Made by a program: the position numbers and the translations under genes. DNA of 64,000 bases from a virus. Taxonomy: Duplodnaviria; Caudoviricetes. The stretch is taken from IMG/VR virus record IMGVR_UViG_3300034170_000057. One strand, written 5' to 3'. Of this stretch, positions 1,667-48,875 are shown piece by piece. A model generated the notes under the pieces. It searched no databases, was not told the origin of the DNA, and was given only the letters and a program-made list of their open reading frames with translations. Each line of letters opens with the position of its first letter. Within the stretch, counting starts at the first letter, position 1.

Positions 1667-1714
1667 TTTATTAGTAATCCCGAAAACAGTTTGGGAGATT
1701 ACTGGAGAAAGTCC

Positions 1715-3307
1715 ATGACCCTACAAAACGGCAGTAATACGTCGGCGGGTGTGTACGGCGGTGAAGTGGATAACTCACAATCCACATCGTCCACCTACCC
1801 GACCACGGGGGCTATGGTAAGTGAATCCAATCGCGGACGTGTTGGCATTCCAACGCTTGTTACCAGCGTGGGGGATTTCCGGGCCAAATTTGGCTTGCGT
1901 GATGCATCGCTTACCTTCGGCCATTTTGCCGCTGAACGCTTCCTGAAAAAAGCACAGCGGCTCTGGTTTTTGCGCGTTGATACCGAAGCAGAATTCGGTT
2001 CGGCAACGGTTGTTACGAAAGACGGATTCGCCATGCCAAAAGCGGCGACCCAAGGTTATCTTGATCCGGATACCGAACACAACCAACTGCCAGACGAAAT
2101 CGGTTTGATTTACGCCGCTGATCCGGGCAAGTGGAACAACCAACTTCGCGTCTTGATGTATCCGGACGTGAACGATATTGAAAACGAGCAATTTGTTTTG
2201 CAAGTTTTCGAAACCAACATGAGTAACCCGGTTGAAACTTACCGTGGCACTCTGCGCGAAAAGGTTGACGGCCAACGCCGCCAATTGAGCATCGCGTACC
2301 AGTTGGAAAACCTCGAATCCCGCGTTCGTTTCAAACCGAACGTTGAGCATCCTGAGTACGTGAGTTCGGGCGGTTCCAAACGTCTGATTAACGCGATTGT
2401 CGAAGTCGATTTGTCCTACGGTTCCAATGGCCGTGTGGCGAACGCTGGCGATATCATCACAGGCTGGGGCGAATTCGAAAACGAGGATGATTTCGAAATC
2501 CGTTTGCTGATCAACGCGGGCTATGCCGACGCGGGGATTCATCAGGAAATGATTCAGCTGGCGGAAACTCGCCGTGACTGTTTCGCGATTCTCGATATTC
2601 CGTCCGATCAACAAACGGTAACGCGTGCGGTTAATTACCGACGCAACACGTTGAACACCAACACCAGTTTCGCCGCACTTTATTGCGCGGATATTCTGGA
2701 AGTTACCGACGATAACCAAGAAGTCTACGTGCCTTGTTCCGGTGCTATCGCTGCTGTGTTCGCACAGTCTGACGAAGCGCGTGACGTATTTTGGGCACCG
2801 GCTGGTGTTATCCGTGGCGTGATCACCGAAATCAGCGGCGTGCGTCACCGTTACTCGCTGCCAGAACGGAACATCCTCGACCAAAACCAAATCAACATGA
2901 TCCACAAGCAAGCCGGTTACGGTTATTGCGTGTGGGGCGCACAGACTTTGCAATCGCAGAAATCGGCGTTGCAAGATGTACCTGTTCGCCGTCTGATTAA
3001 CTTGATCGAAACCACTGCGAAATATGACGTTCTTGTCGGCCTGTTTGATCCGAACGATGAATTCCTGTGGGCACAATTGAAAGGCGTTGTGGAACGTATC
3101 CTCGACCCGATCAAACGTGCGCGTGGTCTGTATTTCTCGGCTGTGTATTGCGACAAGAATACCAACCCGAAATCGCAGATTGCGAATGGTGACGTTGCAC
3201 TGGTCTACGTGATTCAGCCGACTCGTTATGCGAAGCGGATCAAATTCACAACGACTGTTGCGGCCACCGGCCAACTGTCCACCGCCGTGGAACAAATCGC
3301 GGCGTAA
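1715..3307 (+). CDS. contractile tail sheath protein
   Basis: N-terminal SAGVYGGEVD, PG.W.N motif, C-terminal FWAPAG..RG, WGAQTL, VRRL, W..LK..VE..L motifs typical of sheath proteins; GGAGA RBS before ATG 1715. Confidence 0.92.
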   Translation: MTLQNGSNTSAGVYGGEVDNSQSTSSTYPTTGAMVSESNRGRVGIPTLVTSVGDFRAKFGLRDASLTFGHFAAERFLKKAQRLWFLRVDTEAEFGSATVVTKDGFAMPKAATQGYLDPDTEHNQLPDEIGLIYAADPGKWNNQLRVLMYPDVNDIENEQFVLQVFETNMSNPVETYRGTLREKVDGQRRQLSIAYQLENLESRVRFKPNVEHPEYVSSGGSKRLINAIVEVDLSYGSNGRVANAGDIITGWGEFENEDDFEIRLLINAGYADAGIHQEMIQLAETRRDCFAILDIPSDQQTVTRAVNYRRNTLNTNTSFAALYCADILEVTDDNQEVYVPCSGAIAAVFAQSDEARDVFWAPAGVIRGVITEISGVRHRYSLPERNILDQNQINMIHKQAGYGYCVWGAQTLQSQKSALQDVPVRRLINLIETTAKYDVLVGLFDPNDEFLWAQLKGVVERILDPIKRARGLYFSAVYCDKNTNPKSQIANGDVALVYVIQPTRYAKRIKFTTTVAATGQLSTAVEQIAA

Positions 3308-3903: not shown

Positions 3904-4407
3904 ATGCCAATCCTTTCGCTCGAAGAATTTGCAGAAAAACGTTCGGGTGATCGAAGCCCGATGCTTGATTTTTATTGGTACTGTATCGAATTGCCTTTCG
4001 ACCTTGATCCGTCATACGTCGAGGAAGTTACGCTACCAGTTCCGTCGATCAACATGAAGCCGGTTTTCATGGCTGGTCGTTTTGCACAGTACCCCGGCTT
4101 TCGTGAATTAAGTGCATTCGATCTTACTTTTTACGAAGACGTTTCGATGCGCAGTTTCAAATATGTGGAGGCATGGCGCAATCGTGTGATGCATCCTACG
4201 GAAGGTTATTATTACCTACCGGGAAACTACAAACGCAATATGAAATTTGCTTTGACTGACGGGCGCACAACTGACACGCCTGTCATGACGATAACGCTAG
4301 AGGATGTTTGGCCCACCACCACAAGCCCCATCGGCTTAGTGAACAATGGCGGCCAAGCGATTAAGGTTCAGCAAAACTTTGCAATTGATAGGGTGACATA
4401 CGAATGA
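3904..4407 (+). CDS. second tail tube-like protein (tube initiator/gp54-like)
   Basis: 167 aa; 'LTFYED', 'LEDVWPT', 'F.IDR' tube-fold pattern; position in tail module. Confidence 0.65.
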   Translation: MPILSLEEFAEKRSGDRSPMLDFYWYCIELPFDLDPSYVEEVTLPVPSINMKPVFMAGRFAQYPGFRELSAFDLTFYEDVSMRSFKYVEAWRNRVMHPTEGYYYLPGNYKRNMKFALTDGRTTDTPVMTITLEDVWPTTTSPIGLVNNGGQAIKVQQNFAIDRVTYE

Positions 4408-6160: not shown

Positions 6161-9100
6161 ATGGCTGCTCTAGACAAGCTAAACGAAATTGTTGATAAAC
6201 ACGCGACGGAAAAAACCGAACGCGAAGCGGCGCCAAAGCGTAAGAACGAAACCAAACCACGCCTAATGCAGCACGCACACGTGGCGCAGGATGACGACGT
6301 GCGGCTGTCGGGACAGAAGCGCCATTCGTATGCGCGTACCGGTCGTGCTGATCAGAAAAATCAGGGCCAGAAAAACACTGCGGTTCGCACACAAACGCAG
6401 GCAGGTAAAGGCGACCGTTCCAATGCTGACGCTATCGACGGGCAGACGCAGGTTATCCGCACGCAGGTAATGGCGTCGAATAAACAATCGAATTTGCTGC
6501 AACAGCAATCCGGTTTGATGCAAGATCAATTGGGCGCCATGCGTGACGTATCCGACGTAATCACGCGCCTTGCTGATTTCATGCAAAAGCAAGCGACCAA
6601 GCCAGAACCAAAAGTGCAGGGCGGCCACACTTACGAAGGACAATTTAGTCGCGTAAATGAACAAGAAGTCGCGGCCCAAGAACGTCGCCGCACGATCATG
6701 GATGACATGAAAGAAAGACGCCGCGAAAAACAGCGTGATCGTGCATCACGGCAGGAACGGGATCGCTTAGGACGTTTCAAACGCAGCGCGCCGAAAGGCC
6801 CCAAACTGCAACGTGTTGGCGGTGCTTTGCGTGGCGGTGCTGGCGCTCTAGGTGAAATGGGCGGCCTCGGCGGTCGTGCTGCGGGCATGGGTGCTGCTGC
6901 ATTAGGCCCCCTTCTCGCGTTGGCTACTGCGTACTATGGCGGCAAAGCCATGGATGCAATGTATGACAATGCAACGTTTGAAAAAAGTGAAGCCGGTTCC
7001 CTGCGCAAAGGTTATCAAAGCGCTGGCGATTGGATGCAGGACAAAATGCGTCCTGAGCAAGGGAATTCTTACGTCGATCAAAACACGCGTAATCAAGGCC
7101 GCGACGTAGAAGGCAAAATGATTGGCGAAAAGTCTCGCCATCAAGAATTTGGTGCGATTAGCGCAAACTTCGAATCCGGTGGCCGTGGCGTTGCGACCGT
7201 TTCCACAGGCAAGGGTGATAACGGCGGTGTTTCTTACGGGAAACATCAGCTTAGTTCCAAAGAAGGAACGATGACCGCTTACCTGCGTTCGGAAGACGGC
7301 CAGAAGTATTACAACGATTTCCGAGGACTGGCACCGGGCTCGAAAGAATTCGACTCGAAGTACAAAGAAGTCGCTGGTCGTGACGGTGATGAGTTCGATA
7401 AATCGCAACAGAAATTCGTAACCAAATCACACTACGATCCGCTGGCTGAATGGTTCACCAAACAATACGGCATTGATCTGGATAAGCGCTCGCGTGCTTT
7501 GAAAGAAGCGCTTTATTCTGTGTCGGTTCAGTACGGTGTTTCCACTGGTAAATCTGTTTTAGGTGATGCGTTCGGCAACCGCGATTTGGAAGGTATGGAC
7601 GATGCAACACTGATCGACTATATCCAAGAAACACGGGCCAACACTGTATCGACTCGTTTCCGTTCCAGTGACAAAGCAACACAGGAATCCGTTTACAAAC
7701 GTGCGGGTACTGAAAAAGCTGCGCTGTTGGGAATGCTCAACGAAGAAAAAGCGGGTCCGGGTTCTGCTGCAAAAGATGGTTCCGGAATCGGTGCTGCTTA
7801 TTCGCAGAAAATGATCGGTGCATACGGCGGCCAACCTGCGGGCGGTGGCGGTAGTAACACGGGCACAGGCGCTGCGTCGAACGGCACAATCGGAATCATG
7901 GCCCCTACTTCGGGCGGTGCTGCAACAACTGGTGCGGGTGACGAAGCGGGCGGCGGTACTGCTGCGGCTACGCTTAGTCCGGGTGACGGTGCGCTTTATG
8001 CACTCGGCCAAAAGAACACAATTCCAAACGATAATTCCGTGAACATGTCCGGTTTGAATGACAAATTCAAGCAAGCATTTTTCACCATGGTTGGCGATTG
8101 GGTTCAGAATAATTCCGGCACACAAGTAAAAGTTGCGTCGGCTTTCCGTACCCGTGCGGAACAGGAACAATTGTGGATTAAATACGGTCGCAATACCAAA
8201 CGCGTTGCACGTCCCGGTACGTCGCGGCACGAATCTGGTTTTGCAATCGACATTGACCGCGATTCTGCGTCGAAAATGGAAAGCACTGGCCTGTTCAAGA
8301 AATACGGTTTTCACCGTCCACTTTCTAATGAGCCTTGGCACGTCGAATTAATTGGTGGCTCGAAGGGTGGCGGCACTCCACCGGAAACTAAAGCGTCTGG
8401 CGCTGCCCCGCAATTAATGCAACAGGCGTCCGCTGAAATGGATGCTTCGGCAAAAGCTGTCGCAACAAATAGTGCTGAAGAAAACACGAAAGGTGCGGGC
8501 GCTGCACCGAGCGGTGGTGGTGCAACAACTGGTGCGGGTGACGAAGCGGGCGGCGGTACGGTTGCGAAATCTGGCGTGGCAGGCGGTAAGGATAAAATCG
8601 AGGAAGAGGAAGAAGAGGAAGAGGTAGACGAAAAACCAGAAGGCCCCGAAGGTGAAAATCACGAAATAAAAACGGAAGCAATGCCAGCAACCGTAAACGT
8701 GATGGGCGACACGCCGGTAACTACGCAGGGCGGTGTTCAAAATCCAGACGGAACCTATACAAAATCTGGAGCTAATGGGAATCCCTACGGCACTCCCGGT
8801 TCTCCCGGTACAAAAGCTGGTGGAACGTGGTCACAGCGCAATGGGCAAATGGGCCAAACCATGGGCGGCGGCGGATATTCTGGCTCTCCCGGTACACCCG
8901 GCTACGGTCAACGCGCACGCCCGTATTCCCAAACACAAACCGGTCGCGCAGTAACTGGCGCAGTTACAAAAATCGGTAACGTTATGGGCCTCGGTTCTTT
9001 CGGCACAATGGCTCCCGGCGTAGACGGTGGTTTGCGTGGAATTGATTCGAAAGTAAACGGCGTTTTCAACAAGGTTCCGGGGTTGCGTGAGCTTTCGCGT

Positions 9101-9670
9101 ATTCCGGGTCTTCCACAAATCCCGCGCCTGTCTTCTGGTCTGCCGAGTTTCGGAAATATCGTAACTGGCGCAGCAGATAAAATCGGAAGTTTCTTTGGTG
9201 GTGGCGATCCTGCACCAACCAACGTGCCTTATTCCGAGCGTCCGAAAATCATGAACGGCCAGAAGGTTACATACGATGGCCCTGCCGTAACTTCCACGGA
9301 TCAAATCGGTAAAACTTCGCTGAATGCTCCGGTGGCCGCAATGTCGCCCGCATCTGCAACGTATTACAACAACGATGCGCCGGTAGTTACTAAGTCCGCT
9401 GGCTCTATGCCGATTTCTCCAATGTCTGCACCTTCCCAAGCAACCGCAATGCCTGCACCCGAAGCTGTCGAAAGAAATAGTTTTGACGGCGTACAAAAGG
9501 TTTCTATTGCTTCGTCGGATGTTCCACAAGCCGATGGTGGCGGTGGCGCAGCAGCAGGCGGTGGTGGCGGTAGCGCAGGCGGTGCTAAAAACGATATGCC
9601 ACAAATCGACGACGCACCCGCAATCATGGATGACTTCGGCCTTCTGTTCGTAAATATGGGAATGGTTTAA
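6161..9670 (+). CDS. tape-measure-like virion protein with VgrG3-C-like muramidase and M15 (VanY-like) peptidase domains
   Basis: 1169 aa; FESGGRGVATVSTGKGDNGGVSYGKHQL (muramidase) near 7169-7250; SAFRT..EQ..LW, SRHESGFAID, EPWH (M15 Zn motifs) near 8137-8343; long G/A/S/T-rich linkers. Confidence 0.8.
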   Translation: MAALDKLNEIVDKHATEKTEREAAPKRKNETKPRLMQHAHVAQDDDVRLSGQKRHSYARTGRADQKNQGQKNTAVRTQTQAGKGDRSNADAIDGQTQVIRTQVMASNKQSNLLQQQSGLMQDQLGAMRDVSDVITRLADFMQKQATKPEPKVQGGHTYEGQFSRVNEQEVAAQERRRTIMDDMKERRREKQRDRASRQERDRLGRFKRSAPKGPKLQRVGGALRGGAGALGEMGGLGGRAAGMGAAALGPLLALATAYYGGKAMDAMYDNATFEKSEAGSLRKGYQSAGDWMQDKMRPEQGNSYVDQNTRNQGRDVEGKMIGEKSRHQEFGAISANFESGGRGVATVSTGKGDNGGVSYGKHQLSSKEGTMTAYLRSEDGQKYYNDFRGLAPGSKEFDSKYKEVAGRDGDEFDKSQQKFVTKSHYDPLAEWFTKQYGIDLDKRSRALKEALYSVSVQYGVSTGKSVLGDAFGNRDLEGMDDATLIDYIQETRANTVSTRFRSSDKATQESVYKRAGTEKAALLGMLNEEKAGPGSAAKDGSGIGAAYSQKMIGAYGGQPAGGGGSNTGTGAASNGTIGIMAPTSGGAATTGAGDEAGGGTAAATLSPGDGALYALGQKNTIPNDNSVNMSGLNDKFKQAFFTMVGDWVQNNSGTQVKVASAFRTRAEQEQLWIKYGRNTKRVARPGTSRHESGFAIDIDRDSASKMESTGLFKKYGFHRPLSNEPWHVELIGGSKGGGTPPETKASGAAPQLMQQASAEMDASAKAVATNSAEENTKGAGAAPSGGGATTGAGDEAGGGTVAKSGVAGGKDKIEEEEEEEEVDEKPEGPEGENHEIKTEAMPATVNVMGDTPVTTQGGVQNPDGTYTKSGANGNPYGTPGSPGTKAGGTWSQRNGQMGQTMGGGGYSGSPGTPGYGQRARPYSQTQTGRAVTGAVTKIGNVMGLGSFGTMAPGVDGGLRGIDSKVNGVFNKVPGLRELSRIPGLPQIPRLSSGLPSFGNIVTGAADKIGSFFGGGDPAPTNVPYSERPKIMNGQKVTYDGPAVTSTDQIGKTSLNAPVAAMSPASATYYNNDAPVVTKSAGSMPISPMSAPSQATAMPAPEAVERNSFDGVQKVSIASSDVPQADGGGGAAAGGGGGSAGGAKNDMPQIDDAPAIMDDFGLLFVNMGMV
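7921..8559 (+). repeat. 39 bp exact direct repeat (7921-7959 and 8521-8559) flanking the M15 domain
   Basis: TGCAACAACTGGTGCGGGTGACGAAGCGGGCGGCGGTAC occurs twice, 600 bp apart and in frame. Confidence 0.95.
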
Positions 9671-12209: not shown

Positions 12210-13070
12210 ATGAGTATTAAAGCGGATCGCTGGATCAAACGTATGTGTCAGCCGACACGTGAAGCGCTGTTGGTAAACGGCGAATTCTACGCGTGGTTTG
12301 GTTCGCACCGTGCGGACGCCCTGCTTGCGCTGCGTAATTGTGGCTCACGTCTTCTGTCCACCAAATTCATCGAACACGTTCCGATGATTTCGCCTTTTTC
12401 GGACAAGCAAATTTCGCAGGTCGAAATCCCCGGCGAAGTTGAGCGCCGTTCCGCAATGCATTACAAAGGCGAGTTCTACTGCTGGCAAGAAGAACTAAAA
12501 GAAAAAGCAGCAGCTGACGGCTATTTGTTCCCGCTCATGGGACCAGATTGGAGCATGTTCGATCTGGAAGTTGGGCCGCGTATGCGTTCCATCATTCCAT
12601 ACGGCCTGAGTTCCTATGGCTACGACATTCGTTGCGGTAACGAATTCAAGATTTTCACCAACCTAAATACGACGGTTGTTGATCCGAAGAATTTCACTGA
12701 GGACAACTTCGTTACCCGCCACGCAGACGACGGCGATGCAATCATTATTCCGCCGAATTCTTTTGCACTGGCAAACACGCCTGAGCAATTCAACATCGAC
12801 CGCGACACGCTGGTAATCTGCCTCGGCAAATCGACGTATGCGCGCTGCGGTATCATCGTAAACGTCACGCCGTTAGAGCCCGAGTGGACCGGCAGCTTGA
12901 CGCTGGAATTCTCCAACACAACGCCGTTGCCTGCGAAGATTTATGCGGGCGAAGGTTGCGCACAAATTCTGTTCATCGGCTCTGACGAAGAATGCGAAGT
13001 TTCCTATGCGGATCGCAAAGGGAAATACATGCATCAAGCGGCGGTGCCCGTCTCCCCGAAAATGCTTTGA
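12210..13070 (+). CDS. dcd: dCTP deaminase with two insertions
   Basis: [83 protein letters not shown]. Confidence 0.95.
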
Positions 13071-14606: not shown

Positions 14607-15530
14607 ATGAATGTCCAAGGCTATGATGGGGTGATGGGCGAAATCGTCGATGCCCTACAGGACCACGGCGACCCCGACAAGATCCGCCGCATTCAGGTAA
14701 CTGAAGCGGAAATGAATGAAATCGTAAAATCCGGTGCGTTTCGTAAAACCGCTGGCACCTATTACGGTTCCTCGGACGTTTATGTTTTCTCGGATATCGA
14801 AGCAGACTCATCGGGCAACATTTACTCGATGCGGCTTAGCGGTGTTCTGATTTGCCTCGGCCCATGGGAACCCAGCGGCGCATTGGCCGCTGTAGTTTAT
14901 GGCCCACTTACCGAAACACTGAAAGCCGAAACTGTTTTCGTGCGTGAAGTGAACGGCCAGAAATATATGCTGGCTGGCACAGGTAATCCGGCCAACGATT
15001 TCGTGATCGGAAAGAACGCAAATATCGAACTCGGTATTGCTGTGCGCAAATATAACAACGCTGATTATTTCGGTGATGGTGCAGGCACCTTCGATGTTGA
15101 ACTGGATGCAGGCGAGCGCTGGACTTTCGCACTGACCGCTGGTTCTGTTCTGGAAGGCGTTCCAAACTTCACGGAAATGTACGACGTTTCTCTGTACATC
15201 GACGTGGACCCGACCGGCGTCGTTGCCCCTATCAAATGGGATTTGCAGTGGACGCCAAACAGCACCGGTAAGGGCAATAATTTCACTTGGTACAACCAAG
15301 GCATTCGCGTTGTGGATGATTCTGCGACCAACGAATTGCACAACGTCACACAAATGATTCAGCAGTACACTTTCCCGTACATCGACCACGCAATTCCGCT
15401 GGGCGTTGAGCGCACGGAAGACGGTGTGCCACTGGGTATTTTCAGTTTGAAATTGGAAGCGCGCCCACGCCTGCAAACCGGCGATGCGGTTTCGGTTGAA
15501 GTGTTGGCAAACATCACAAAAAAGTTGTAA
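14607..15530 (+). CDS. hypothetical (possibly virion) protein; short product of a frameshifted gene
   Basis: 307 aa, ends ACA AAA AAG TTG TAA. Confidence 0.75.
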   Translation: MNVQGYDGVMGEIVDALQDHGDPDKIRRIQVTEAEMNEIVKSGAFRKTAGTYYGSSDVYVFSDIEADSSGNIYSMRLSGVLICLGPWEPSGALAAVVYGPLTETLKAETVFVREVNGQKYMLAGTGNPANDFVIGKNANIELGIAVRKYNNADYFGDGAGTFDVELDAGERWTFALTAGSVLEGVPNFTEMYDVSLYIDVDPTGVVAPIKWDLQWTPNSTGKGNNFTWYNQGIRVVDDSATNELHNVTQMIQQYTFPYIDHAIPLGVERTEDGVPLGIFSLKLEARPRLQTGDAVSVEVLANITKKL

Positions 15531-15570
15531 AACCTGTTCCGCGACGTTCGCTGGTTGTCGGTGGTACAGG
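15518..15570 (+). other. putative -1 programmed ribosomal frameshift signal
   Basis: A_AAA_AAG at 15518-15524, 8 nt spacer, stem-loop 15533-15570. Confidence 0.75.
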
Positions 15571-16327
15571 TACTGACCAAGATGGAAACGGTTTATTCGT
15601 TCAGTCTAATGGTTTCGTACCTGCATCTGTTGCTGCATCCATTGTTGATATTGCGGCTGGTGATGGTCGCTACATTGCAGTGGGTTCTAAAGTCTACGAA
15701 TCTTTCGATAAGATCGAATGGACTGCGATGGATGTTGATTTAGTGTTTTCTCACATCGTTTACGCAGGTAAGTTTTACGCCTGCGTGGATGGTGTAGGGA
15801 TTTATGCACTCGATAAAGACTGGACGCTTGTCCACGAATTTACTGGTAATTTTGTGTGTGCCAGAAACATCGGCGGGCCTGCGTTCGGGACGGATCAGGG
15901 AATGATCTTGATTGGGCCAGAATGGCACTCGGTAACGGTTGGCGTTGGGCGTGTATGGTTGACGGATACTTCGGCAGATTTCCGTGTTGTTTTGAACAAC
16001 GGTGATCAGCTTGAAACTTTCCGTGGGCCGGTCAATGCGCTGATATCCGAAGGCGTAACCGAACTCGATGGCCTCACGGTTAGCGGGTGCTGGTACGACC
16101 AACAAAATAAATGCGTAGTAGTTAGCGCCGCGTTTGATGACTGTCCGATTTATGCAGTCTATAAAAACGGATGGACATTCAACATTGTCGAAGGTGACGT
16201 AGCAATCGACGTGGCCGACGGTGCAATGCTGACTAGCAACGCGGTGTACACCACCAAAGACTGGGCGACGTTCGAACTGCTGCATACGTTCGAAAACTTC
16301 GCTGCAAAAACTTTGCTGTTTGCGTGA
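15524..16327 (+). CDS. -1 frame extension (beta-propeller-like repeats) of the 14607 gene
   Basis: Frame open 15500-16327; no ATG/GTG/TTG before 15680, yet 15524-15679 looks coding. Confidence 0.65.
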   Translation, partial: VVKPVPRRSLVVGGTGTDQDGNGLFVQSNGFVPASVAASIVDIAAGDGRYIAVGSKVYESFDKIEWTAMDVDLVFSHIVYAGKFYACVDGVGIYALDKDWTLVHEFTGNFVCARNIGGPAFGTDQGMILIGPEWHSVTVGVGRVWLTDTSADFRVVLNNGDQLETFRGPVNALISEGVTELDGLTVSGCWYDQQNKCVVVSAAFDDCPIYAVYKNGWTFNIVEGDVAIDVADGAMLTSNAVYTTKDWATFELLHTFENFAAKTLLFA

Positions 16328-16331
16328 CAAG

Positions 16332-16366
16332 AAACCCCTGTTTCCAAAAGGAAACAGGGGTTTTTT
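16332..16366 (+). terminator. intrinsic terminator
   Basis: AAACCCCTGTTTCC-AAAA-GGAAACAGGGGTTT plus T-run. Confidence 0.9.
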
Positions 16367-16374
16367 CATTTGGG

Positions 16375-16389
16375 CAGATACTGTAAATA
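16375..16389 (+). promoter_or_regulatory. CTGTAAATA motif (candidate phage-specific promoter); also at 10721, 12071, 19001, 23685, 28230, 52480
   Basis: Seven copies, mostly intergenic, after terminators and upstream of starts. Confidence 0.6.
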
Positions 16390-16428
16390 TAGGTCATGTA
16401 TCTGACTGCCTAGTGCGAGGCAATAAAA

Positions 16429-47550: not shown

Positions 47551-48378
47551 ATGAGACAGACCGAAGTCCGTGCTAAATTCCCCGACCACAAATTGGTTTT
47601 CTCCGTCGCCAAAGCCCGTGCGTTTGAAAATCGAACGCTGTCGATTTACGTGAAGGGCACCAACGAATTCGTGGCGACCATCGAACAGCGGTCTGAAAAA
47701 GCTGTGGCGATGATCGTGCGACCGGGCCGGGGTAAAACTGCTTTGGCGAAATTCGTAGCGTTCGCGGAAGTGGGCAGCTACAAAAACGTGCATGAAGTTG
47801 AAAAGGCGATGAACGCCGAGCGTAAATTCGACGGCCTCGGAAATGTCGAGTGGGAAGACGCCCGCAAACAGTTCGTCAAAATGCAGGATCAGGATTTCGA
47901 CACGCTTATCAAAATGCTGGCTGTTTATTTCGGCGTGCTGGAAAATCGCAACAACGGCTATTCTAGTGAGCATTTCCAGTACCTGACTGCACAAGGTAAG
48001 ACGCTGTACCGTAATGCCGTGCAGATTGCTTCTGGCGCTACCTACGACACCGGCACAAAGGTTCCTGCGTTCCCCGGTAACGGCGGGCCGTTGCGTGAAC
48101 TGGCAATGTCTCCCGATGATCTGGCTAAGGCTTCCAAGCTGCTGCAAACGTCGCCAGTGGCACAGGTTGCACAAACCATTGCCGAGGGTAAGCAGAAACG
48201 TGAAGACCTCGACAAACGCACCGTGTGGGGCGCTGAAGACGACGCGATTTTCGAAATGGTCCAAGCCGATCACAAAATCCTATCTGATCGTCTGGCTGTT
48301 CTGTATTCCGCACGCGGCAGTAAAATCTCGATTCCGGAATTTGATCGTATCCGGAAAGCAAAAAAGGAAGCGCAATAA
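47551..48378 (+). CDS. hypothetical protein
   Basis: 275 aa, AAGGA RBS. Confidence 0.75.
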   Translation: MRQTEVRAKFPDHKLVFSVAKARAFENRTLSIYVKGTNEFVATIEQRSEKAVAMIVRPGRGKTALAKFVAFAEVGSYKNVHEVEKAMNAERKFDGLGNVEWEDARKQFVKMQDQDFDTLIKMLAVYFGVLENRNNGYSSEHFQYLTAQGKTLYRNAVQIASGATYDTGTKVPAFPGNGGPLRELAMSPDDLAKASKLLQTSPVAQVAQTIAEGKQKREDLDKRTVWGAEDDAIFEMVQADHKILSDRLAVLYSARGSKISIPEFDRIRKAKKEAQ

Positions 48379-48875
48379 TGCCTAAATCATCATCGTTCAT
48401 TATCAAGACGCGGCAGACCAACGGAATTACGGAACAGTTCGCCCGGTTAGTCGGGTATGAGCCGTACCCGGATGGCCGGTTTCTACAGGTTGGCGACAAC
48501 GGCGTTAAATGCCTGTACCGGCCCCTGATTGACGAAAACGGTTACGAAGGTGTGTGCCCCGTCGAATTCAATCCGTATGAAAACGGCAGCGATGCAATGC
48601 AGGTCGCCGCGTATTTGCGTGCATTTATTTGCGTGAGTGCTGACGGAAAACAAGTCAGCGTGGCAACCAACGATTTCGAAGCGGTTGCAGATTTGCCACA
48701 AAACAAGTCGTACATGCAACAGCATGCGAAAATCATGCGCGATACGATCATGGCCGTGGCTGCAATGTACGTGAAGAAACATTTCGACATTGACCCGCCA
48801 GTAAATACAACGACGCGTTCGGAAACCCACGAACCCACCGCCGCCCCTCACGTAAAGACCTACATCAAGGAATAA
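48378..48875 (+). CDS. hypothetical protein
   Basis: 165 aa. Confidence 0.7.
   Translation: MPKSSSFIIKTRQTNGITEQFARLVGYEPYPDGRFLQVGDNGVKCLYRPLIDENGYEGVCPVEFNPYENGSDAMQVAAYLRAFICVSADGKQVSVATNDFEAVADLPQNKSYMQQHAKIMRDTIMAVAAMYVKKHFDIDPPVNTTTRSETHEPTAAPHVKTYIKE

Follow-up and report, generated by a model that had tools for sequence, protein, structure and literature searches.

A Probable Programmed −1 Ribosomal Frameshift Appending a Predicted Beta-Propeller to a Decoration-Like Protein in a Lu11-Like Jumbo Myophage

Reading Frames and Slippery Site at the Locus

The stretch of viral DNA examined here, 64,000 nucleotides (nt) of the IMG/VR record IMGVR_UViG_3300034170_000057 (Duplodnaviria; Caudoviricetes) and hereafter called the window, contains at positions 14607 to 16327 a candidate two-product gene, in which an open reading frame (ORF) of 307 codons ends just after a slippery heptamer and a second, long ORF continues in the −1 frame (Table 1). 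A first-pass annotation, made from the letters of the window alone, had read this arrangement as a programmed −1 frameshift; the reading is supported by the recurrence, in 13 genomes, of the frame change together with an in-phase heptamer, and by the lack of a conserved start codon or Shine-Dalgarno (SD) sequence for the downstream frame. The heptamer was confirmed in the X_XXY_YYZ phase required for tandem slippage, and the −1 frame is, as originally described, open from 15500 to 16327, with GTG at 15680 (codon 53 past the slip) as its earliest ATG, GTG or TTG codon. The −1 product has the sequence VVKPVPRRSLVVGG...; the predicted transframe protein of 573 amino acids (aa) reads ...NITKK/VVKPVPR... 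at the frame change, within the junction-spanning stretch ...NITKKVVKPVPR.... The N-terminus of the short form, MNVQxY, is kept in the relatives described below. In one subclade of these (L008, L017, and L018), the 0 frame is open for ten codons further 5′ and holds an alternative ATG (MSSLITQETL...) ahead of the conserved start.

The heptamer A_AAA_AAG occurs 15 times in the window against 21.9 copies expected and is not above chance; as it is no commoner than chance, the window sequence alone could therefore not settle the frameshift question. It is the full layout, kept across 13 distinct genomes, that exceeds chance, and not the heptamer as such. A second in-phase A_AAA_AAG is found at 48360, four codons ahead of the stop of the ORF at 47551–48378, with an ORF in the −1 frame at 48378–48875. 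It was considered as a further frameshift site and set aside, since the following ORF has its own ATG (in a TAATG overlap) and a GGAAG ribosome-binding site that is partly built by the heptamer; 48360–48380 is more readily explained by ordinary translational coupling.

Table 1. Features of the candidate frameshift gene, and other mapped elements of the window.
Feature	Position	Strand	Remarks
0-frame ORF, short form (307 aa)	14607–15530	+	N-terminal helical/beta module and immunoglobulin (Ig)-like beta-sandwich (about residues 100–305)
Slippery heptamer A_AAA_AAG	15518–15524	+	X_XXY_YYZ phase; end of ORF reads ACA AAA AAG TTG TAA
0-frame stop TAA	15528–15530	+	One codon past the heptamer; terminates the short form
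Candidate 3′ stimulatory hairpin	15532–15571	+	7 nt after the heptamer; 14 base pairs (bp), U/U mismatch, one bulged G, two G.U pairs
Coding region in the −1 frame (267 codons and a stop)	15524–16327	+	Post-slip; long form would be 573 aa (306 + 267); predicted beta-propeller
52-codon stretch of the −1 frame without start codons	15524–15679	+	Without ATG, GTG or TTG; translatable by a frameshifted ribosome only
Intrinsic terminator, hairpin and U-run	16329–16366	+	17-bp stem, −30.3 kcal/mol, z −6.54; immediately 3′ of the −1 frame stop
Tail sheath gene	1691–3307		In the window
dCTP deaminase gene	12210–13070		In the window, upstream of the candidate frameshift gene; small ORFs in between

Conservation of the Arrangement in Related Genomes

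Relatives were gathered by a full HMMER search that used the −1 product as query, by look-ups of the encoding contigs, and by an alignment-based scan of viral contigs; a single-protein search of the viral contigs with P0001 gave no match, and the alignment query succeeded. The resulting set consists of 15 loci that represent 12 distinct genomes besides the window (13 with it) and includes the isolates Lu11 and HRDY3. All 13 genomes carry A_AAA_AAG in slippery phase, and all place the 0-frame stop within zero to one codon past the heptamer; the −1 ORF extends for 261–278 codons after the heptamer, and the conceptual fused proteins range from 81% down to 39% amino-acid identity to that of the window.

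This distribution bears on the possibility that the frame change stems from an indel introduced into the A-run by assembly or sequencing, or marks a dead, split gene with a decaying 3′ half. Homopolymers are error-prone, and one distant relative (locus L006, discussed below) does have the gene in a single frame; yet the same frame change is found in 13 distinct genomes from isolates and several metagenomes and platforms, and contigs from other samples agree with the window, with no listed indel at the A-run in a contig set that covers the whole stretch with a single gap of unlisted position (X2) or in one that covers 15171–16404 (X4). The same layout in distinct genomes and the agreement of other-sample contigs therefore effectively exclude an assembly error or a private mutation. 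Since the 3′ half is also under purifying selection, with a ratio of nonsynonymous to synonymous change (pN/pS) of 0.41–0.46, and is predicted to fold confidently, an indel or a dead gene is extremely improbable as an account of the locus.

The N-terminal part of the short form has a homolog of its own in Pseudomonas phage PaBG, where gp61 (L005, 2501–2782) is a stand-alone ORF of 93 aa that corresponds to the first ~86 residues, with 28% identity and a template modeling (TM) score of 0.76 by target; this module is therefore able to occur on its own.

Coding Constraint on the −1 Frame and Silent Sites at the Junction

HRDY3 and Lu11 share the layout of the window, and in GenBank each pair is entered as two separate hypothetical genes (gp42 and gp41 in Lu11), set 264 and 117 nt apart. 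Gene callers treat these phages in the same way; with a GTG present at 15680, and a heptamer that by itself is not rare in the window, the locus could be taken for two separate genes, the propeller protein starting independently at GTG 15680 and the heptamer being incidental. The pattern among the relatives speaks against independent initiation, which the first-pass annotation had itself named among the outcomes that would undo its proposal. The start codon of the −1 frame is not conserved; the first candidate ranges from codon 11 to codon 88, with no candidate before codon 88 in HRDY3, and no relative has an SD sequence before its first candidate start. The codons 5′ of these starts are nonetheless kept as protein: across the start-less codons 17–52, pN/pS is 0.41, much like the 0.45–0.46 in the rest of the gene, and the residues P4, P6, G13, G23, G46, A52, and G54 are invariant. 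Judged by these substitution patterns, purifying selection acts on the start-less segment. AlphaFold modeling of the −1 product places in this segment the strands at residues 10–14, 24–27, 31–34, 40–46, and 49–54, so that a protein begun at 15680 would, according to the model, be short of roughly one propeller blade. Given also the invariance of heptamer, phase and adjacent stop in 13 genomes, the suppression of silent change at the site, and the existence of a fused ortholog (both described below), two independently started genes are a highly unlikely alternative.

Twelve full-length conceptual fusions were aligned by codon, and silent sites were scored as codon identity at positions where the residues are identical. 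In the heptamer codons the same codon was used in 67 of 67 same-residue pair comparisons, and identity remained high in the spacer (80%) and stem-loop codons (79%), compared to 47% in the 14 codons ahead of the heptamer and 51% in all other columns. When windows of 11 or 13 codons were ranked across the whole gene (560 windows), all top-ranked windows started at codons 301–308, on the junction. The mean synonymous difference was 0.27 at the junction, compared to 0.66–0.75 elsewhere, and fell to 0.06–0.15 at the junction in the four closest window-to-relative pairs. This reduced synonymous change argues for an additional layer of selection, acting on the RNA.

A Relative with Both Halves in One Frame

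A 115-kb metagenomic contig (locus L006) encodes a protein of 582 aa, P0008, that contains both halves in one frame. Residues 1–305 are 40% identical to the short form of the window (E 1e-70) and residues 307–582 are 37% identical to the −1 product; the junction reads ...ACC TAC AAA GAA CCG... and has neither heptamer nor frame change. The locus is syntenic with the frameshifting loci, with a gene of the T4_Y16D family upstream and a DUF1353 gene downstream, and the predicted 573-aa transframe protein of the window aligns to P0008 across the junction residue for residue, without a gap. P0008, fused in frame, thus shows that this gene family does produce the long protein with both domains.

Predicted Structure and Affiliation of the Two Halves

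The two halves were folded separately; searches of Pfam and PHROGs found no family for either. The model of the short form has a predicted local distance difference test (pLDDT) score of 77. Its residues 106–304 are homologous to residues 88–282 of gp9 from Sphingomonas phage PAU (29% identity, E 6e-16), and the two structures superimpose with a TM score of 0.54 and a root-mean-square deviation of 4.1; the GenBank note for PAU gp9 reads capsid decoration protein "banana". The same residues of the short form are more weakly similar (28%) to PA5oct gp383, a virion protein by electrospray ionization tandem mass spectrometry. For the upstream half, VIA-align returned generic Ig-like sandwiches with Z of ~6, which is under the tool's own level for meaning, and Foldseek against the PDB found nothing clear for the N-terminal part. 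From these homologies, the short form appears to be a virion-type, decoration-like protein. PAU gp9 is an in-frame protein of 768 aa that runs on for ~490 residues past the homologous module (...ANVT); by the presence of this extension, the upstream module therefore naturally carries C-terminal additions. No similarity was found between the PAU gp9 extension and the propeller. Hua et al. (2017; PMC5646251) described arch-like extra density on PAU's peri-pentonal hexamers, and no paper was found that links gp9 to it.

The first-pass annotation had seen propeller-like repeats in the downstream half, and the AlphaFold model bears this out: the −1 product is predicted as a beta-propeller with high confidence (pLDDT 88, predicted TM score 0.88), and propellers in the PDB and the AlphaFold database match it with TM scores of 0.72–0.77 over residues 1–267 or 9–264. 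In sequence it shows faint similarity to propeller repeats of the DUF6242 or HVO_0234 type. Modeled in this way, the downstream half appears to be a generic beta-propeller, from whose fold a ligand cannot be read; according to the predicted structure, the extension is an independently folded C-terminal domain.

The Candidate Hairpin

RNAfold recovered the stem-loop that had been proposed 3′ of the heptamer; the fold has one A-U pair more than first drawn, which extends the hairpin to 15532–15571 and shortens the spacer to 7 nt. A 51-nt piece folds at −17.9 kcal/mol (z = −3.06), which none of 200 shuffled sequences equaled; in a longer piece of 83 nt, z is only −0.67. The conservation of the hairpin among relatives holds in part. 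Folding of 10 distinct sequences predicts a counterpart in 8 (z −1.7 to −4.1), 11 of the 13 aligned sequences preserve the paired columns, and two relatives (L009 and L010) retain the hairpin despite several different bases; for L011 and L020, the most divergent pair of relatives, no such hairpin is predicted (z +0.5 and +1.2).

The hairpin arms coincide with codons for Pro (CCN) and Gly (GGN) in a conserved PxP...GGxG peptide, and L006, the in-frame relative without frameshifting, folds a similar hairpin at the equivalent place (3905–3975, z −2.55). The L006 hairpin is left over from an ancestor that frameshifted, or else it simply follows from the CCN and GGN codons; the choice bears on the ancestral state of the gene family. 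The stimulator is the least secure part of the signal.

Proposed Mechanism

Taken together, one late gene is in all likelihood decoded in two ways, into a form of 307 residues and a form of 573 residues with an added beta-propeller. Most ribosomes would read 14607–15530, stop, and yield the 307-aa protein. A fraction would pause at the hairpin with two tRNA-Lys on AAA AAG; the P-site and A-site tRNA-Lys would then slip back together by one base, re-pairing from AAA AAG to AAA AAA, and the slipped ribosomes would proceed in the −1 frame to 16327, producing the 573-aa protein with its C-terminal propeller. A_AAA_AAG is among the three best heptamers in E. coli and, when a stimulator is present, one of the most efficient (PMC4066793). 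The long form is, as a reasonable guess, the minority form. Both forms would enter the virion, and the modeled propeller may serve as a surface binding module that is shown at a sub-stoichiometric level.

Several observations weigh against this interpretation. Most concern the stimulation of the frameshift. No upstream internal SD stimulator is found in the window, and among the 13 sequences a GAGG is present in two only, at the 17-nt limit; without stimulators, A_AAA_AAG yields ~0.3% frameshifting in E. coli (PMC4066793). The failure to predict the hairpin in the two most divergent relatives belongs here as well, as does the weak covariation, with one of ten pairs altered on both sides, and the hairpin of the in-frame relative; given this hairpin and the Pro/Gly codons in the arms, the pairing may therefore in part come from the coding sequence. 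The virion role, in turn, leans on the annotation by others of distant homologs (29% identity).

The −1 frame could also be reached through transcription, if RNA polymerase added one A in the A6 run and placed some messages in frame; a homopolymer run is present, and the protein outcome would be nearly alike. The known sites of bacterial transcriptional slippage use runs of more than six (about nine). All 13 genomes have exactly six A's and then a G, with no longer run in any of them, and the run always stands in the X_XXY_YYZ phase that a polymerase does not need. The predicted hairpin lies at 7 nt, where a ribosomal stimulator would sit. A contig from a peat sequencing run that is labelled as RNA (X1) spans 15495–16326 with the A6 run unaltered, keeping in mind that contigs can mask minorities and that DNA may be in the library. 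Polymerase slippage is for these reasons quite improbable, and slippage by the ribosome is the inferred event. An intrinsic terminator follows the stop of the −1 frame (Table 1), and folding revealed no comparable terminator element after the 0-frame stop; the terminator was seen by folding and overlooked by a simple consensus scan. Its position and the X1 contig are compatible with a single message and an unedited majority of transcripts, both of which are beyond what contigs can prove. As a separate observation, the X1 contigs break at 15479 and resume at 15495, just 5′ of the heptamer, where DNA contigs of other samples are continuous; the break at 15480–15494 may be a filtering artifact, and a hole in contigs proves nothing.

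Genomic Setting

The window derives from a Lu11-like jumbo myophage. Its closest sequenced relatives are the Pseudomonas phages HRDY3 and Lu11, with ~67% nucleotide identity across this stretch, and the host is probably Pseudomonas-like. Nearly all genes of the window lie on the plus strand; beside the tail sheath (Table 1), they code for a baseplate-hub-like protein and a dCTP deaminase. A scan of the window found no tRNA genes. A protein of 1169 aa, encoded at 6161–9670, combines a C-terminal domain like that of VgrG3 of the type VI secretion system (PF21277, E 5e-55) with a D-Ala-D-Ala carboxypeptidase domain of the VanY type; it is probably a tail-associated protein that degrades the cell wall.

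Comparison with Known Recoding Systems

In its sequence elements, the signal is of the dnaX/IS3 type without the SD element. It shares with dnaX and the IS3 family (IS911, IS3, IS150) the same heptamer, decoding by tRNA-Lys, and, as a candidate element here, a 3′ hairpin within the usual distance of 5–9 nt; both are expected to work by two tRNAs slipping at the same time (PMC4066793; PMC4344849). In contrast to the window site, dnaX and IS911 have an upstream internal SD; the dnaX shift truncates the protein, whereas the shift in the window would add 267 residues; and the 0-frame stop within zero to one codon past the site is unlike dnaX and IS3.

C-terminal extension of virion proteins by frameshifting is known from gene 10A/10B of phages T3 and T7, Lactobacillus phage A2, and the Listeria phages A118, A500 and PSA (reviewed in PMC5009743); for the Ig-like domains, relatives bear the same domain either by frameshift or in frame (PMC5009743, citing Fraser et al., 2006). 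Like these 10A/10B-type systems, the gene in the window would yield, from one structural gene, a shorter major product and a longer one with an extra folded C-terminal domain. The carriers differ, being major capsid or tail proteins in the known cases and, in this jumbo myophage, a decoration-like accessory protein, and so do the extensions, Ig-like domains of ~100 residues as opposed to a predicted beta-propeller of ~265 residues. PAU gp9 resembles the window gene in combining the homologous module with a long C-terminal extension, but does so as a single in-frame protein of 768 aa, and PA5oct gp383 has a similar module without extension. The tail chaperone G/GT of phage lambda is likewise a late gene with a conserved −1 shift and a short and an extended product; unlike the small chaperone encoded between the tube and tape-measure genes, the gene of the window follows the dCTP deaminase gene and specifies a beta-rich 307-aa protein plus propeller, consistent with the original remark that the site lies outside the usual tail-chaperone position. 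New in the present case are the carrier, a jumbo-phage decoration-like protein, the cargo, a propeller of ~265 residues, and the absence of the frameshift from annotation; a literature search, which much of the literature lay beyond, turned up no paper that deals with HRDY3, PAU gp9 or a Lu11 frameshift.

Implications

For the annotation of this phage group, the finding would be a correction. Lu11 gp42 and gp41 and their HRDY3 equivalents are filed as unrelated hypothetical proteins, and the downstream gene has been given start codons in GenBank that differ between phages and trim part of the fold. Knowledge of the frameshifting mechanism itself is not altered. The beta-propeller would join the domains that phages add to virion proteins by recoding, of which the known cases are mostly Ig-like, and recoding would be placed on a decoration-like protein of a jumbo phage.

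It is conceivable, and at present a rather doubtful proposition, that the frameshift fixes a low ratio of propeller-bearing to plain copies on the capsid surface, so that a few propellers at set positions, e.g., peri-pentonal arch sites as in PAU, could mediate reversible adhesion to glycans on the host surface or to polymers in the environment. If this were true, relatives with the in-frame fusion would show the propeller on every copy, and frameshifted and in-frame relatives would constitute a natural pair for testing the stoichiometry of capsid display. Apart from this proposition, a gene family that contains both frameshifted and in-frame versions of one two-domain protein offers a clean system for asking what purpose the ratio of short to long form serves.

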